Shown here piece by piece: positions 1,160 through 36,213 of a stretch of 64,000 nucleotides of DNA. Each line of letters starts with the position of its first letter. Positions within the stretch are counted from its first letter, which is position 1. Position numbers and translations under genes: made by a program. The stretch is taken from the sequence record OP172784. The stretch is one strand, 5' to 3'. This DNA comes from Escherichia phage ECO07P1. The notes beneath the pieces are model-generated. The model made no database searches and was not told the origin of the DNA. It worked only from the letters and a program-made list of their open reading frames with translations.

Positions 1160-3139
1160 TTAACCTGCAAGACCAGTTAACTCATCGAAATCTGCACCAG
1201 TAGCAGTTGCGACGAAATTCAAAGTAATATAATTTATACTGCGCGCCGGTTGGATGTAGAATGTTGCAACAAACTCATTTCTATCAATTACTGACGGAGT
1301 GTTATTTGTTGTATCGCAAACTACACGATATTCATAAATTCCACCGAGAGCTTTAATTCCCTGCAAGTACTGGGAAGTTTCTGTGCGGAACGATGAACGA
1401 GTAAACGCGTTGTTTAATTCGAACAAACGATATTTTGAACTACGTCCGATATTCGTTTTCAACATATTAAACAGACGACGAACGTTAATACGATCAAATG
1501 GAGAAGGAACAGAAGTAGCTGTTTTATCACCATACAATACGTAACCATCACCACCTGTACCAGTTACTGGGTTGATAGCTTCTTGGTATAAACGGTCGCG
1601 CTGCGCCTGGCGAGTTTCAATAGCAAGTTTAATAACGTTAAGAATCTGGCCACGATTATAACCAGCTGGAGACATCCAAGTCTGAGAAACGTTATCAGTT
1701 CTTGCGCATAAACCAGCAATATCAGCTGCTAATGGAACCCAACGATTCACATCATTATATTTGTCATACTGATACTTGTAGTTACCATCAATTGCTGCAT
1801 AGGTTGAACTGATATTAAAGTTATTATCAGTGTATGAACCTGCTGCAGTTCTCCAATTGACTAAGTTATCAACAGCACGAGTTACAGGAATTCCAACCAC
1901 AGTTTCACGCGGTGGTGAGCACAATACCAAGCAATCTTGGCGAGCATCACCAATTGAAACAACATGTTTTTGGACAGTAGATGCTGTTTCAAGAGATTCA
2001 CCGGCACAAGAACCAGCAATAAACAACTGAACGTCAACAGATTCACGGTCAGCAAAGAAGTCCCAGGCTTCCATCAAATCTCCTGCTGTTACTTCAGCAT
2101 TTGACGATAATCCACCAGACAGAGTTAAAATTCCGGAGAAGCCTTCTGGCCAGTTTTGTGCAGTTGCGAAAATATATTCTGAACCGCCTTTTGCGAAAAA
2201 GTCATCAATATAGATGTTACTATCGTAAATATCTTTTTCACCACGCTTTGTTGAAAGAACAACGCTTTGAACAATAGCATCATTGCGACGAACTATAATA
2301 GCGTATTGTGAATCAGTTTGTGGTCCATATCCAAACACTGCTTTGGCAGTAGATGCGCGTGTTCCGCCACCTGGATAAATTGGTAGTAATGCAGAAGCAC
2401 CTTTTGCGTAGTCAGCTTTAGATACGATTTCAATTTCGATTTTATCGCCCAACTCGCCTGGATAAAGAGCTACTACTCCTGGAATTCCATATTTTTCGAG
2501 ATTTGTTTGAAAGTCAACAGCTGTCATGGCAGCTTCGGCATTTTCAATTTCAGCTAATAAAATACCAGAATCAGTAATAATTTTTCCAAGAGTTATTACT
2601 GCAGCTAAACCAGAGGAAGACGAAGAAATTTCTGCGGTCCAGTTAGAACCTAGTGCTGGATATTCGCCTACTTCTTTCGCTTTAGCGATAATTTTTGCGG
2701 TAGGAATATTAATTTTCTTAATTTTTCCATCAGCATCTACTTCGGTAATTTTACATTCTGTTTCAATGTCTTCTGAAACATACTTAACCGTGATTTTATC
2801 TCCAACCGCGTAGTTACTACCTGGGGTAGAAATAGTGTATTCAATATTACCGGCAATCGGAGATGAGTTTTTAGCGGTATCTCTATCGACAGCACGCACA
2901 ACTCGCAAATCATTTCCGTATTGTAAGAAATTCATTGCAGACATAAAATAGTCAGCAGTTTCAGCTGTAGGTTGACCAAAAGTATTAACTAAATCTACTT
3001 CATTTGTAACCTGTTTAATTTGAAAAGCAGGACCCCACTGGAATTTACCGGCCAGAGCTGCTGTACCAGTAGAGTTATTAACCACGGTGCTTTGAACCGT
3101 AGTTTCTTTGAGCTCAATGCCCGGAGATAATAAAGTCAT
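1160..3139 (-). CDS. 18: contractile tail sheath protein gp18
   Basis: 659 aa, same length as T4 gp18; position between 17 and 19. Confidence 0.92.
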   Translation of the reverse strand: MTLLSPGIELKETTVQSTVVNNSTGTAALAGKFQWGPAFQIKQVTNEVDLVNTFGQPTAETADYFMSAMNFLQYGNDLRVVRAVDRDTAKNSSPIAGNIEYTISTPGSNYAVGDKITVKYVSEDIETECKITEVDADGKIKKINIPTAKIIAKAKEVGEYPALGSNWTAEISSSSSGLAAVITLGKIITDSGILLAEIENAEAAMTAVDFQTNLEKYGIPGVVALYPGELGDKIEIEIVSKADYAKGASALLPIYPGGGTRASTAKAVFGYGPQTDSQYAIIVRRNDAIVQSVVLSTKRGEKDIYDSNIYIDDFFAKGGSEYIFATAQNWPEGFSGILTLSGGLSSNAEVTAGDLMEAWDFFADRESVDVQLFIAGSCAGESLETASTVQKHVVSIGDARQDCLVLCSPPRETVVGIPVTRAVDNLVNWRTAAGSYTDNNFNISSTYAAIDGNYKYQYDKYNDVNRWVPLAADIAGLCARTDNVSQTWMSPAGYNRGQILNVIKLAIETRQAQRDRLYQEAINPVTGTGGDGYVLYGDKTATSVPSPFDRINVRRLFNMLKTNIGRSSKYRLFELNNAFTRSSFRTETSQYLQGIKALGGIYEYRVVCDTTNNTPSVIDRNEFVATFYIQPARSINYITLNFVATATGADFDELTGLAG

Positions 3140-3167
3140 TTTTAATCCTCTTTAATATGCTTTAATA

Positions 3168-6308
<3,141 letters not shown>

Positions 6309-31790: not shown

Positions 31791-32384
31791 ATGAACACAC
31801 TGAAGAAAATTGTTGATTTTATTCGCACTAAACTTGGTTCTGCAATGGCTAAAAATCTATCTGTTGAAGAACAGTATACTGCTGCAGCAGCAAAACTGCT
31901 TGATAAAATTAAAGACCTAAAAACTGCTTCTGTTAAATCTATTAATGAAGAAAAACGTATTCGTGAACTTATTGTTGAAAAGAATAAACAGGCTGAATCA
32001 AAAGAGCGTGAAATTCGCAAGCTTCTTTCCGAAGGTCAAGATGTAACAATGCATGCTAAACTTGGCTTGCTATATCGTCGAACAGCTGAACAGCTGACTA
32101 CTAAAGCTGATGGGTATGCTGAAATGCGAATTGAAATCGCCAAGAAAGTAGTTGAGTTAGATGATGCTCGTCAAGAACTTGCAGTTAAATTGGAATATAT
32201 CCGTGAAACTCGTGCGGCAAATGCCCTTGGAATTAGTACTGCTGATGATGTAGTTGAAATCGCAGCGCTAACTAAGGTTGATATTGAAGATACTCTTGCT
32301 CGAGTTGAAACCTTTAACGGTAATATTTCCGGGGTTGAAACCACCTCTGCCGATGTCCAGGAATATATTAATTCTCTGAAATAA
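31791..32384 (+). CDS. coiled-coil protein (possibly PspA/IM30-like)
   Basis: 197 aa predominantly helical, heptad-rich; followed by GGGGCTTCGGCCCC hairpin. Confidence 0.5.
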
Positions 32385-32389
32385 TGATA

Positions 32390-32405
32390 AGGGGCTTCGG
32401 CCCCT
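32390..32405 (+). terminator. terminator-like UUCG hairpin
   Basis: AGGGGCTTCGGCCCCT after the 31791 ORF; weak T-run. Confidence 0.45.
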
Positions 32406-32425: not shown

Positions 32426-33034
32426 ATGAAAATGCAAAGTGATTTCAATTCAATGTTTGAAGAGTTCCAAAGACAGGTTGATGTTCCAGACCAATTACTA
32501 AATGCTCTTAAACGTATGGCAGAAGGACGTAATTATTATTGGGGGTCTTCATATGAAACTGATGAAAGTCTTTCTGGAAGATTTTCTAGAGGTAAAAAGT
32601 CTTTAATACGTCCTGGAATACTCATTAAAAGTATTGAATCAATTCATTCATTGACGTGTGATTTTGATGTTGAATTTACTGATTTCATTTCTCCTGAATG
32701 GACAGTTTGTTATTTAAATGACGATTATGATTATCTTGGCGTTTATAGTTTAAGTGACGCATGGTTTAAACGTAATTTACAAAAGTCAAATTTGTTCTAT
32801 ATTGATACTACGGTAAAATTTCAGGGAAAGAAATATTTCTTTACTCTTATAGTTGACTCTGAAACAAAATATGAAAATAAGCGTATTCTTAGTAAAAAGA
32901 ATATCTTAACTATCGTTGATGATCTTTTTGATAAATTCGTGGAAAATCCTAATTTTGAAAGCGATTTATTATTAGAAAAATTTGTTAAGGAATGTAGAGA
33001 ATATGTCAAAGCCATCACTATACCTTCCAAGTAA
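32426..33034 (+). CDS. hypothetical protein, paralog family member 1 (soluble)
   Basis: 202 aa; C-terminal motif LLEKFVKECREYVK shared with the next three ORFs. Confidence 0.6.
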   Translation: MKMQSDFNSMFEEFQRQVDVPDQLLNALKRMAEGRNYYWGSSYETDESLSGRFSRGKKSLIRPGILIKSIESIHSLTCDFDVEFTDFISPEWTVCYLNDDYDYLGVYSLSDAWFKRNLQKSNLFYIDTTVKFQGKKYFFTLIVDSETKYENKRILSKKNILTIVDDLFDKFVENPNFESDLLLEKFVKECREYVKAITIPSK

Positions 33035-33395
33035 ACCTGTGAAGTATGAACTAAAGCGTCAGCTAATTCCTACTGATGTATTAATAGGTCCTGTGACAGC
33101 TATATCATTTGTAATTCTATTGATTGTTGGAATGGTTATAGACTTTATGACTGATATTGAATCTGGCGTAATATTTTTGTTAATATTAATTCTTCCATTA
33201 GTAGTTCCATTTTTATTGGTACCTGTAAATTGGGTAGGATATTGGTATCAAGGAAGGCATTATCGTAAACGTGTACGTGAATGGAAAGCTCAGTGTAAAA
33301 AGATTAAAAAGGAACACCAGCTTAAACTAAATATGTATGAATTTAATGAAATTATGAAATTTGTTAAGGAATCACGATGCAAAAGCCAAAACTAA
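33003..33395 (+). CDS. small two-TM membrane protein, paralog family member 2
   Basis: Two hydrophobic helices then basic tail ending FVKESRCK; start MSKPSLYL chosen. Confidence 0.55.
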   Translation: MSKPSLYLPSKPVKYELKRQLIPTDVLIGPVTAISFVILLIVGMVIDFMTDIESGVIFLLILILPLVVPFLLVPVNWVGYWYQGRHYRKRVREWKAQCKKIKKEHQLKLNMYEFNEIMKFVKESRCKSQN

Positions 33396-33751
33396 ATAAA
33401 GTCAAATATTCTTTTTCTGAGTCATTTTTAATTTTTGCTGTGGCGTTGGCTGCAGCTCTTGCTGGTAGTCTTATTGGATTAATGATTGACTGTATTATTT
33501 TAAACATCCGCAGTAACGTCAGCGGTATAGTAGATATAATAGAAGTTTGGAGTGAACTTCATTATACTATAGCAATTTCATTATTTTCATTCTTTAGTAT
33601 CATTTTATATTTTCATTATGATAATTTTAAAATAAATTGGCAAAGAAAAAAGGATTACAAAATACAATTAAAAGAATATAATAACTACATGTCTTATATT
33701 GAAAATGAATCAATGGAAGAGTTTGTGAGTGATTGCAGGAAAATCAAATGA
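33377..33751 (+). CDS. small two-TM membrane protein, paralog family member 3
   Basis: 124 aa; two hydrophobic helices; C-terminus EEFVSDCRKIK. Confidence 0.55.
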   Translation: MQKPKLNKVKYSFSESFLIFAVALAAALAGSLIGLMIDCIILNIRSNVSGIVDIIEVWSELHYTIAISLFSFFSIILYFHYDNFKINWQRKKDYKIQLKEYNNYMSYIENESMEEFVSDCRKIK

Positions 33752-34236
33752 TTTTAAAAACTCGCTGGTATGATTTAGATGACGGGGATGATGGCATTTC
33801 AGTTGATAGAGTTGACTGGAATGGCTGTTCCGAAGATATGAAAAATTTGCTGATTAGGGAGTTTAGAATGGGATATCAACCAGTTAAGCCATCTACTGCA
33901 ACAGATGATAAGTTTGTATGTATTCAAAATGGCCGCGCTAAGTTAACGAACGCTGATTGGTTCACAGATAAGAAGGTTATTCTGTGGTATATCATTAGTT
34001 TTCCTGTGACATCATTTGTATTTTGCTTCTTTGGAGAAAGTCCAGTAGGCAGAACGGGAGATTGGATTCTTTTAACCATACTTGTTAATATTTTTACAGC
34101 AGCAATATTATCTGGGATATGGTACATGTTCATTGAAATGCCATGGCGGTTACGTAGGCAGCAAAAGATTTTTGATGAAAAGAAATATACTCAAAATTTA
34201 AATAACTTTATCACTGAATGCAGGAAATTAAAATGA
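33748..34236 (+). CDS. two-TM membrane protein, paralog family member 4
   Basis: Start MILKTRWY at ATGA overlap; two hydrophobic helices; C-terminus NNFITECRKLK. Confidence 0.55.
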   Translation: MILKTRWYDLDDGDDGISVDRVDWNGCSEDMKNLLIREFRMGYQPVKPSTATDDKFVCIQNGRAKLTNADWFTDKKVILWYIISFPVTSFVFCFFGESPVGRTGDWILLTILVNIFTAAILSGIWYMFIEMPWRLRRQQKIFDEKKYTQNLNNFITECRKLK

Positions 34237-34673
34237 AAACATTATCAGCTGGTATTATCTTTATGACAGAAGATAAAGATTTATTTATGGGACGAGTTAC
34301 TGGTTCTCGTAAGCCCGGAATGATGGCACATCGCTGGGATATTCCAAAGGGCCGCGTAGAAAGTTTTGATTTGAATGCACTGGAAGCTGCAAAAAGAGAA
34401 TGCTCAGAAGAGACTGGTTTTAGCAATTATAATCCAGACCTTCTAGAAGACCTAGGTGTATTTAAATATTCTAGTAATAAAGACTTACAGTTATTTTATT
34501 ATACGATTCCAGTAGAGCATGAGATGTTTAGAAATTGCCATTGCGAGTCTTATTTTGAAAATAAAGATGGCGTTATGATTCCAGAGATGGATGCTTTTGC
34601 TCTTATTCCTCGTACTCAGTGGCAATATGTGATGGGTCCTTCACTTTACCGAATAATGAACAACCTCTTTTAA
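34233..34673 (+). CDS. nudE: Nudix hydrolase
   Basis: Nudix box GRVESFDLNALEAAKRECSEETGF; upstream of e as in T4; alternative start at 34218. Confidence 0.75.
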   Translation: MKTLSAGIIFMTEDKDLFMGRVTGSRKPGMMAHRWDIPKGRVESFDLNALEAAKRECSEETGFSNYNPDLLEDLGVFKYSSNKDLQLFYYTIPVEHEMFRNCHCESYFENKDGVMIPEMDAFALIPRTQWQYVMGPSLYRIMNNLF

Positions 34674-35476
<803 letters not shown>

Positions 35477-35954: not shown

Positions 35955-36213
35955 ATGAAAATGTATCAAGAATTTATCGCTGAAGCAGATGCCAAAGGCC
36001 CCAAATTTAAAGTTAAAGCTTTCGTTGGTGATGCGGAAGACTTTGGCTCATTAAAACGTAATGGGTATTTTTCCTAGGCGGCGATGGTAGAGAAATAAAC
36101 ACCTATGCAAAACGTAGTGAATTGCTTATGTTGCTGCAAGTCCTAAAGTAGATGTTGACGATATTGGATACGATTTTAACAACTTCGGAATTATTTCTGG
36201 CGGTGAAGCTTAA
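35955..36213 (+). pseudogene. decayed internal-protein gene remnant
   Basis: Starts MKMYQEFIAEADAKGP (CTS-like), stops after 40 codons; remaining sequence has short ORFs in other frames. Confidence 0.45.

Follow-up and report, generated by a model that had tools for sequence, protein, structure and literature searches.

A C-terminal tail common to soluble and membrane proteins encoded beside gene e.6 of T4-like phages is a putative docking helix

Introduction

The C-terminal clamp-binding tails of gp43, gp33 and gp55 of phage T4, like PIP-box-like motifs, are short hydrophobic C-terminal peptides that dock to a hub. In this study we analyzed a stretch of 64,000 nucleotides (nt) from Escherichia phage ECO07P1 (sequence record OP172784), hereafter called the window, in which the four consecutive genes e.5, e.4, e.3 and e.2 (positions 32426-34236, + strand) encode proteins with a similar short tail at the C-terminus. 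As in the case of the clamp-binding tails, a short hydrophobic C-terminal peptide is thus found on phage proteins that otherwise seem to be unrelated. The tails of the window differ from the clamp-binding tails in their sequence pattern, their carriers are membrane and accessory proteins instead of replication and transcription factors, and their hub is only putative. We consider, with a probability of about 0.45, that this tail is a cytoplasmic docking helix which targets soluble and membrane-anchored early proteins to one partner. The partner is possibly the product of the neighboring gene e.6.

In the Psp system, PspA is under the control of PspB and PspC, which bind to it. The present locus resembles this system in that a PspA/Vipp1-like coiled coil (the e.6 product, so assigned by a fold search) is encoded beside small proteins of the inner membrane whose tails lie in the cytoplasm. 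A single transmembrane (TM) helix is present in PspB and in PspC, whereas two are predicted in each of e.4, e.3 and e.2. When these three proteins were compared with PspB and PspC, the best match was that of e.3 with PspB, with an E value of 0.76 over 11 residues. T4 Imm, which consists of 83 amino acids (aa) and confers superinfection immunity, is also a small, early, two-TM inner-membrane protein that is dispensable in the laboratory. However, Imm has neither the long basic C-terminal helix nor the tail motif, and the E value between e.4 and Imm was 0.56 in an 11-sequence database.

The capsid targeting sequence of T4 is located at the N-terminus, is cleaved by the prohead protease and directs packaging into the head. 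Its pattern, MKTYQEFIxEA, has in common with the tail an E-F-I-x-E core on otherwise unrelated proteins of the same accessory region, but it is N-terminal and without C-R, and the resemblance is probably coincidental. The open reading frames (ORFs) of the window at 35180-35476, at 35955-36077 and from about 36906 onward look like internal head proteins with a capsid targeting sequence, and such starts include MKMYQEFIAEA.. and MKTYQEFITEA.. (35955 and 36915). A likeness of the tail to the EFIxE of capsid targeting, to the FtsZ C-terminal peptides and to the ESCRT-III MIM1 motif was considered and set aside; the registers match poorly.

The promoter-stem-loop (PeSL) cassettes, which Arbiol et al. 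are said to have proposed in 2010 for modular shuffling in T4-type genomes, are similar to the present locus with respect to the short repeats at gene boundaries, which act as crossovers adding or removing whole genes. The PeSL cassettes are intergenic and consist of a promoter and a hairpin, whereas the repeat described here lies inside coding sequence and includes a ribosome-binding site.

Results and discussion

The tail of e.5, e.4, e.3 and e.2

A first-pass annotation of the window had claimed that four neighboring ORFs share a C-terminal motif. Motif scans and a position-specific scoring matrix (PSSM) confirmed that the ORFs lie where they had been placed and that the shared motif is real and significant. 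The product of e.5 (202 aa; 32426..33034) ends in ..LLEKFVKECREYVKAITIPSK, where the tail is ..EKFVKECREYVK.., and that of e.4 (130 aa; 33003..33395) ends in ..IMKFVKESRCKSQN, where the tail is ..MKFVKESRCKSQN. The product of e.3 (124 aa; 33377..33751) ends in ..SMEEFVSDCRKIK, with the tail ..EEFVSDCRKIK, and that of e.2 (162 aa; 33748..34236) ends in ..NLNNFITECRKLK, with the tail ..NNFITECRKLK. All four tails fit the pattern F-[IV]-x-[ED]-[CS]-R. The motif codons are found at 32981..32998 in e.5 (F-V-K-E-C-R), at 33360..33377 in e.4 (F-V-K-E-S-R, the last base of which begins the ATG of e.3), at 33722..33739 in e.3 (F-V-S-D-C-R) and at 34207..34224 in e.2 (F-I-T-E-C-R).

The strict pattern F[IV].[ED]C[RK] occurred three times in the six frames of the window, every time in one of these tails, and was not found in real ORFs in the rest of the window, in T4 1-45 kb or in T4 100-169 kb. 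With the looser pattern F[IV].[ED].R, at most 12 aa from the stop of open frames of at least 80 aa, four occurrences were observed against 0.01 expected from shuffled sequences. The PSSM was built solely from 26 tails of other phage genera, and it was run over the C-terminal 25 residues of 442 ORFs with lengths of 50 aa or more, taken from a composite of T4 1-45 kb, the window and T4 100-169 kb. The scores were 27.1 bits for e.2, 22.3 for e.5, 22.0 for e.3 and 16.0 for e.4, and the fifth-ranked of the 442 ORFs scored 3.6 bits. In all four proteins, [LIVM]-[ED]-x stands ahead of the motif, which lies no more than about 30 residues from the C-terminus; these features define the tail module. The C-terminus of e.6 (..EYINSLK), which was considered as a variant of the tail, obtained no PSSM score and was rejected as such.

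Membrane topology

The same annotation had described the first product as soluble and the other three as two-TM inner-membrane proteins, and the predictions from hydropathy and from the numbers of Lys and Arg residues (K+R) agree with this description. In Kyte-Doolittle analysis with 19-residue windows, hydrophobic helices were found in e.4 at aa 28-46 and 55-73 (TM1, 33084-33140; TM2, 33165-33227), in e.3 at aa 17-35 and 61-79 (TM1, 33425-33493; TM2, 33557-33616), and in e.2 at aa 77-95 and 106-124 (TM1, 33976-34032; TM2, 34063-34131), where they follow an acidic soluble N-terminal part of 76 aa. In e.5 there was no hydrophobic helix (19-residue maximum, 0.85). The K+R numbers of the N-terminus, the loop and the C-terminus were 5, 0 and 15 in e.4, 4, 1 and 9 in e.3, and 12, 1 and 9 in e.2. 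In accordance with the positive-inside rule, these counts put the N- and the C-terminus of every hairpin in the cytoplasm; that is, the hairpins are predicted to be N-in/C-in with the short loop in the periplasm.

Selection on the peptide and on the RNA

Each tail in the window houses the Shine-Dalgarno sequence of the next gene, and an explanation at the RNA level therefore needed to be tested. According to such an explanation, the tails would be similar merely as a by-product of translational coupling, in which a Shine-Dalgarno sequence and its spacer were copied together with the gene junctions, and the peptide would be functionless. The genes are in fact tightly coupled, as had been claimed before, with overlaps of 32 nt (e.5/e.4), 19 nt (e.4/e.3), 4 nt (e.3/e.2) and 4 nt (e.2/nudE). 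The inner AAGGAA of the e.5 motif, in the K-E codons, is the Shine-Dalgarno sequence of e.4, and the AGGAAA right after the e.3 and e.2 motifs, in R-K, is that of e.2 and nudE, respectively. In 24 of 30 tail proteins, the next gene starts -1 to +25 nt from where the motif ends, and a 16-nt exact repeat (aaatttgttaaggaat) is present in the tails of e.5 (32978..32993) and e.4 (33357-33372).

Several results are difficult to reconcile with this explanation. The Shine-Dalgarno sequence changes its position with the member, being AAGGAA in K-E, AGGAAA in R-K or CGAGGAAAA in R-G-K. The conserved F, I/V and C are outside it, and their codons vary synonymously (ttt/ttc for F and tgt/tgc for C); the Arg codons of the tail are agg, aga, cga and cgt. 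In 5-6 of the 30 proteins (the 80-aa protein of ZPAH1, the 117-aa protein of PG7, those of SW69-9 and Dev_CS701, and the 234-aa protein of Kosakonia phage) the motif is retained even though the next start is 31-258 nt past it, and in RB43, POP12 and Dev_CS701 it is retained 25-32 residues ahead of the stop. Furthermore, conservation of e.5 is highest in the tail when genera are compared in which the protein is otherwise 22% identical, and F186, C190, R191 and E192 of e.5 are among only 10 columns that are invariant in four genera. In clusters at 90% identity the tail is near-invariant (90 of 99 for e.4 and 42 of 50 for e.2).

Since the Shine-Dalgarno sequence shifts among codons, since the F, I/V and C outside it vary synonymously, and since the motif is kept where the next start is distant, we conclude that the tail is under selection at the amino-acid level and that its purine-rich codons serve, by co-adaptation, additionally as the ribosome-binding site. 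Coupling as the sole cause of the similarity seems highly improbable to us.

Throughout the e.4 lineage, S, I or V replaces the Cys of the tail. Metal or redox chemistry at this cysteine is thus unlikely, and the replacements favor a hydrophobic helical face over cysteine chemistry. The residue pattern points to a face composed of L/M(-3), F(0), I/V(+1) and C/I/V(+4), which is followed by a basic residue.

Distribution of the tail and its link to e.6

The tail proteins had been regarded as a local amplification in a hyperplastic e.x region. This view understates their spread, because the tail is an ancient module located beside e.6 in 13 genera of Straboviridae. We used e.6 as an anchor; tblastn found it in 1106 phage records, and nine further genera were examined. 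About 30 proteins in the 13 genera, either soluble or membrane-bound and encoded just downstream of e.6, carry the tail. A tail protein was encoded 1-2 genes downstream of e.6 in 13/13 genera sampled, and the genes upstream of e.6 differ among the genera (tRNA genes or nrd genes).

In RB69, the tails are ..QFIMECREYVK.. in e.5, ..EFVKEIRCK.. in e.4, ..NFIKECRK in e.3 (37% identical to e.3 of the window) and ..RFITECRNLR in e.2, and a fifth tail gene, encoding the two-TM protein ORF133c, ends in ..NFIKECRGK. The tails of SP18 are ..RFIAECREYAK.., ..EFIKEVRNG.. and ..TFIKECKS. In Klebsiella phage Marfa, they are found on an e.5-like protein (..EFIKHCREAVNG), an e.4-like protein (..AFLKEIRK) and a soluble protein of 102 aa (..SFIKYCRGKHVS). 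Tail genes were also located immediately downstream of e.6 in Jiaodavirus, Karamvirus PG7, Kanagawavirus, two Aeromonas phages, Cronobacter phage Dev_CS701, RB43 and Pectobacterium phage POP12, and Aeromonas phage Assk has a weaker variant of the tail.

In these further genera, the soluble carriers have 80-300 aa and the two-TM carriers 98-124 aa. The soluble proteins with the tail are the e.5 family, Marfa gp125, the 80-aa protein of ZPAH1, the 117-aa protein of PG7 and a 92-aa protein of Kosakonia phage; the two-TM ones are e.4, e.3, e.2, RB69 ORF133c, three proteins in PG7 and two in Jiaodavirus. Orthologs of e.5 were found in RB69, SP18, Marfa, Jiaodavirus, Kosakonia phage and Aeromonas phages, those of e.4 in RB69, SP18, Marfa and Jiaodavirus, and that of e.2 in RB69. 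The proteins encoded at the e.5 position form a family of orthologs that evolves fast, as seen from a chain of BLASTP matches obtained without the tail (Jiaodavirus-Marfa, 9e-10; Jiaodavirus-Kosakonia, 2e-9; Jiaodavirus-SW69-9, 7e-7) and from cross-matches to PHROG families (the Kosakonia protein matched phrog_2607 at 8.5e-37). Judging from these comparisons, the tail is a module which at this locus is placed on otherwise unrelated carriers.

Since e.6 is invariably adjacent, we regard its product as the prime candidate for the partner of the tail. This conserved coiled-coil protein of 197 aa is encoded at 31791..32384 in the window. Vipp1 structures were the best matches of its predicted model in the Protein Data Bank (PDB), and this fold assignment is not decisive. 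By sequence, e.6 had no Pfam match to the PspA family (PspA_IM30), a hidden Markov model (HMM) search of PDB sequences gave nothing relevant, and the hhalign comparison with E. coli PspA was negative (E 0.23).

A second tandem family exists at the same locus in other genera. Its members are small soluble proteins of 65-105 aa, all with G-x-W-[VIL]-S-S-S-x-x-C right before the stop (endings GAWVSSSAMC, GGWVSSSMEC and IWYPSSC), and their genes are sometimes interleaved with tail genes. They are located in RB69 (locus L007, reverse complement, 2061-2856), SP18 (L005, 4191-5459), Marfa (L008, 3778-5350), PG7 (L027, 5302-5828) and Kosakonia phage (L030, 5710-7315), and a regex scan of the 64-kb window did not find this family. 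RB69 also has an insertion of 3.1 kb with nine ORFs between e.3 and e.2 (L007, reverse complement, 2061-5206), which includes ORF133c and the 318-aa ORF134c; the latter is also present in PG7 and Kosakonia phage.

Relationship among the carriers

The first-pass annotation had called the four genes a paralog family. In accordance with that claim, the four could be true paralogs from one tandem-duplicated membrane-protein gene, with the tail as the last recognizable remnant; e.5 would then have lost its TM hairpin or acquired a new N-terminal domain. The tandem layout and the identical architecture of e.4, e.3 and e.2 speak for this origin. Pairwise BLASTP among the four proteins gave weak matches (the best, e.3-e.2, with E = 0.005, and the rest with E of at least 0.06). 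We also compared profiles with hhalign, using orthologs from RB69, SP18 and other phages, together with reversed-sequence controls. When the tails were included, the probabilities were 75-86% for e.4-e.3, e.3-e.2, e.3-ORF133c and e.2-ORF133c (85% for full-length e.4-e.3), and only 2% and 9% for e.4-e.2 and e.4-ORF133c, respectively. SP18 gp142, an ortholog of e.3 (97.5%), matched e.4 at 92.6% over 104 columns, tail included.

The scored columns were mostly within the tail. After its removal, the comparisons among e.4, e.3, e.2 and RB69 ORF133c fell to the level of the reversed controls except for e.4-e.3 (E about 0.001-0.002; control, 0.16), and e.2 and ORF133c did no better than the control. 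The alignments of e.5 with the other three were confined to 9-19 tail columns. Thus, the claim of a four-gene family fails for e.5, retains weak support for e.4-e.3, and for e.2 is at background without the tail.

Some similarity was found besides the tail. The N-terminal motif MxKPxL..KP.KY is common to e.4 and e.3, and another, Y-x-P, to e.4, e.2 and two PG7 proteins. Weak collinear BLASTP matches were obtained without the tail between SP18 e.4 and gp142 (E 0.016) and between the 98-aa protein of Jiaodavirus and Marfa gp130 (E 0.002), and e.3 also weakly matches phrog_2604, the family of e.4 (E 0.0067). A 10-nt repeat, tcctgtgaca, is located at the start of TM1 in e.4 (33089..33098) and in e.2 (34002-34011). 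The common architecture, the N-terminal motifs, the weak collinear matches and the runs of nucleotide identity make a case for distant paralogy of e.4, e.3 and e.2. Because the profile signal drops to background without the tail, e.4-e.3 excepted, the sequences suggest that these three are at most distant paralogs.

An origin of all four from one gene is unlikely in our estimate. The orthologs of e.5 are soluble throughout in at least 10 genera, the tail is borne by other, unrelated small soluble proteins, and the highest conservation within a protein would not be expected of a neutral remnant.

An exhaustive search with a merged HMM of e.4, e.3 and e.2 gave 11 matches in 1.84 billion representatives, all of them variants from T4-like phages except for one likely false positive, and found neither distant relatives nor annotated families there. 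Because the matches are so few, the membrane proteins form a very narrow group. Scans of IMG/VR found 5-9 loci, each from close relatives.

Recombination at the repeats

The e.2 gene is absent from phage PP01 and many relatives, and e.3 there ends in ..CRKLK. At the PP01 junction, ..gattgcaggaaa|ttaaaATGAaaaca, the tail of e.3 continues into the last part of the e.2 tail and the start of nudE, with the joint inside the 9-mer tgcaggaaa, which in the window is present in the e.3 tail (33734..33742) and again in the e.2 tail (34219-34227). The deletion puts nudE directly after e.3 with the coupling preserved, and the hybrid ending ..CRKLK was found in 5 of 45 e.3 clusters. In phage UFV11 (locus L015; protein P0143), e.4 and e.2 are joined in register into a protein of 106 aa, with the crossover in tcctgtgaca at the start of TM1. 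The PP01 junction shows that the repeat in tail DNA is a crossover point for the clean, in-frame loss of genes; genes are presumably gained in the same way.

A 151.8-kb T4 record covers only 14% of 32426-34236 (query positions 1559-1811), which suggests that this record carries a deletion in the region. In the T4 reference (L13089, AF158101; compared over locus L002, 2927-3414), a frameshift shortens e.2 to 102 aa and deprives it of TM2 and the tail, whereas here it is intact with 162 aa. The frameshifted form of 102 aa is also present in a cluster from other phages (P0193, 22 members). In both cases, the sequence of TM2 and the tail can be read in another frame. In some records the internal Met41 of e.2 (33868) is annotated as the start, giving a product of 122 aa (P0189). 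This product begins with MGYQPVKP.., resembling the e.4 N-terminus ..LYLPSKP, and the internal start would give an e.4-like protein. In P0197, a metagenomic e.4 variant of 69 aa, both TM helices are precisely deleted in frame (..DVLIG|VREWKAQ..) while the N-terminus, the basic helix and the tail of e.4 are retained; it is either real or an assembly artefact.

Expression, phenotype and possible effector roles

In T4 omics data, e.2 to e.6 are early transcripts and their proteins are detected (PMC9697503, supplements 4 and 6). At the protein level, e.4 and e.5 are classed as early, e.2 and e.6 as middle and e.3 as late (PMC9697503). In a CRISPRi-ART screen, e.2 to e.6 were all listed as of unknown function and as "Not Fit", that is, without a fitness effect on the laboratory host (PMC11879866, supplements 8 and 15).

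It had been suggested earlier that the membrane proteins are superinfection-exclusion, lysis-timing or anti-defense factors, in which case the tail would be incidental. They have the expected character, being small and dispensable proteins of the inner membrane that are expressed early and encoded in an accessory region that varies. Gene content also varies (e.2 is lost or truncated in some phages, and RB69 has the extra ORF133c), and the neutral knock-down on the laboratory host would be expected of genes for host range or competition. On the other hand, these roles obtained no direct support from our searches. BLASTP against T4 Imm, Imm.1, Sp, holin T, RIII and Ac gave no similarity (E at least 0.56), e.5, e.4, e.3 and e.2 were not similar to T4 PseT.3 and 55.8 or to E. 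coli PspB, PspC and PspD, and the four had no match at E up to 1 in PADLOC. Pfam and NCBIfam scans of the four gave sub-threshold noise only, and a search of PDB sequences was uninformative. Moreover, an effector role alone leaves unexplained why the same tail is found on soluble proteins and the conserved e.5 and why the link to e.6 is constant. We therefore think it quite unlikely that such a role accounts for the locus with the tail as an incidental feature, although the effector reading itself is compatible with docking and not opposed to it.

C-terminal tags on otherwise unrelated proteins are classically degrons, as in the case of the ssrA tag. The tail might in the same way be a common signal for turnover by a host or phage protease, which would confine the early proteins to a time window. 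The tail is predicted to be exposed in the cytoplasm, and the abundance classes of the proteins differ despite early RNA for all. This difference can also be turned against the idea, because one degron should give alike protein kinetics. The motif at 25-32 residues from the C-terminus in RB43, POP12 and Dev_CS701 would be unusual for a terminal degron, and no link to a protease was found. A degradation signal seems to us very unlikely.

A model of docking

The docking role proposed in the Introduction would operate as follows. The four proteins would have in common a short amphipathic C-terminal helix of the pattern [LIVM]-[ED]-x-F-[IV]-x-x-[C/I/V/S]-[RK], in which one face would be hydrophobic and basic residues would follow. 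In e.4, e.3 and e.2, this helix would cap the basic cytoplasmic helix behind the N-in/C-in hairpin and, because of this position, would be exposed on the cytoplasmic side of the inner membrane, while in e.5 it would end a soluble domain. As a docking tag, it would allow all carriers to bind one partner surface, and membrane-anchored and soluble carriers may thereby be gathered at the membrane or may compete for that surface. The foremost candidate for the partner is e.6; otherwise, it may be a conserved host protein, or the tails may bundle together. In addition, the DNA of the tail houses the ribosome-binding site of the next gene and, as a short repeat, is a crossover at which complete genes are lost, and presumably gained, in frame.

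The sequences demonstrate the motif, its selection as a peptide, its modular distribution and confinement to this locus, the predicted topology, the ribosome-binding sites within the tails and the products of recombination. The helicity of the tail, the docking and the identity of the partner are what we infer, and four points weigh against the proposal. The helicity is derived from the residue pattern and from a low-confidence model of e.5 (single-sequence AlphaFold, pLDDT 38.8). The adjacency of e.6 could reflect a conserved e.6-e.5 gene pair without physical interaction. Because 24 of 30 tails overlap the next ribosome-binding site, part of the conservation is at the RNA level. Finally, since the knock-down of e.2 to e.6 on the laboratory host is without a phenotype, no functional read-out backs any of the models.

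Genes and annotation of the locus

The stretch is a Tequatrovirus genome segment with 92-98% identity to many T4-like phages, and 32426-34236 is 91.8% identical to T4 record L13089. Gene names were transferred from the annotations of ime09, PP01, RB69 and T4. The order e.6-e.5-e.4-e.3-e.2-nudE-e is the same in ime09, Lutter and T4. Between e.6 and e.5 there is a G+C-rich hairpin, aggggcttcggcccct (32390..32405), which was found in a scan for terminator-like elements of the complementary strand; a terminator or stem-loop is annotated at the same site in phage Lutter and in T4 L13089. Downstream of e.2 are nudE (e.1; 34233..34673), the lysozyme gene e (34710-35198) and then denV. The nudE product is a Nudix hydrolase (Pfam NUDIX, E 1.7e-12), named nudE in related phages, and its gene is coupled to e.2 via an ATGA overlap.

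The genes e.5 to e.2 themselves are long-known T4 ORFs, annotated as conserved hypothetical or predicted membrane proteins. They were originally designated msp4-msp7 in T4 (L13089), with the UniProt entries P39223, P39222, P32274 and P32273 for e.5, e.4, e.3 and e.2, respectively. Full-length PHROG matches were phrog_2607 for e.5 (E 7.6e-110), phrog_2604 for e.4 (3.8e-71), phrog_2330 for e.3 (8.1e-62) and phrog_2203 for e.2 (1.7e-79), all of which are labelled as of unknown function, and precomputed Pfam assignments exist for e.4 (PF26873) and e.2 (PF26896). The statement of the first-pass annotation that the proteins could not be placed in a characterized T4 family thus holds, since they were listed as of unknown function as late as 2025. 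The GenBank labels "sulfurtransferase" and "DNA primase" on e.3/e.4 homologs and "host specificity protein" on e.6 had no profile support, and we regard them as annotation noise. Small ORFs near homologs of e.3, e.4 and e.6 are labelled in GenBank as capsid, tail or baseplate, and no profile search backs these labels, of which "capsid" is likewise taken as noise.

In the annotations and in a limited literature search, we found no mention of the shared tail, of its spread in Straboviridae on unrelated carriers, of its linkage to e.6 or of its role as a recombination joint.

Significance

T4 is the best-studied large phage, and yet about half of its genes, including e.2 to e.6, are without a known function. 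A C-terminal tag that is under strong selection unites at least four of these orphan genes, and about 30 across the family, and ties them to e.6. Several unrelated unknowns are thereby turned into one testable question, namely, which partner the tail binds to. Being short, the tag could serve directly as a bait peptide, or could be mutated without disturbing the rest of the protein.

One coding repeat thus has three uses, as a peptide motif, as a ribosome-binding site and as a recombination joint, which helps to explain how accessory genes are cleanly gained and lost in T4-type genomes. If the partner is the Vipp1/PspA-like e.6, the locus would be a phage-encoded module for membrane maintenance or membrane remodelling. 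We speculate further, as a doubtful extension of the model, that the locus encodes an unrecognized hub-and-adaptor system, in which a Vipp1/PspA-like e.6 would be the hub and the soluble e.5, the hairpins e.4, e.3 and e.2 and other proteins elsewhere would be adaptors docking via the F-[IV]-x-x-C-R helix. If this is true, the tail-coding repeats would let adaptors be swapped in and out by recombination, and the phage could remodel, protect or reprogramme the inner membrane of its host during infection.

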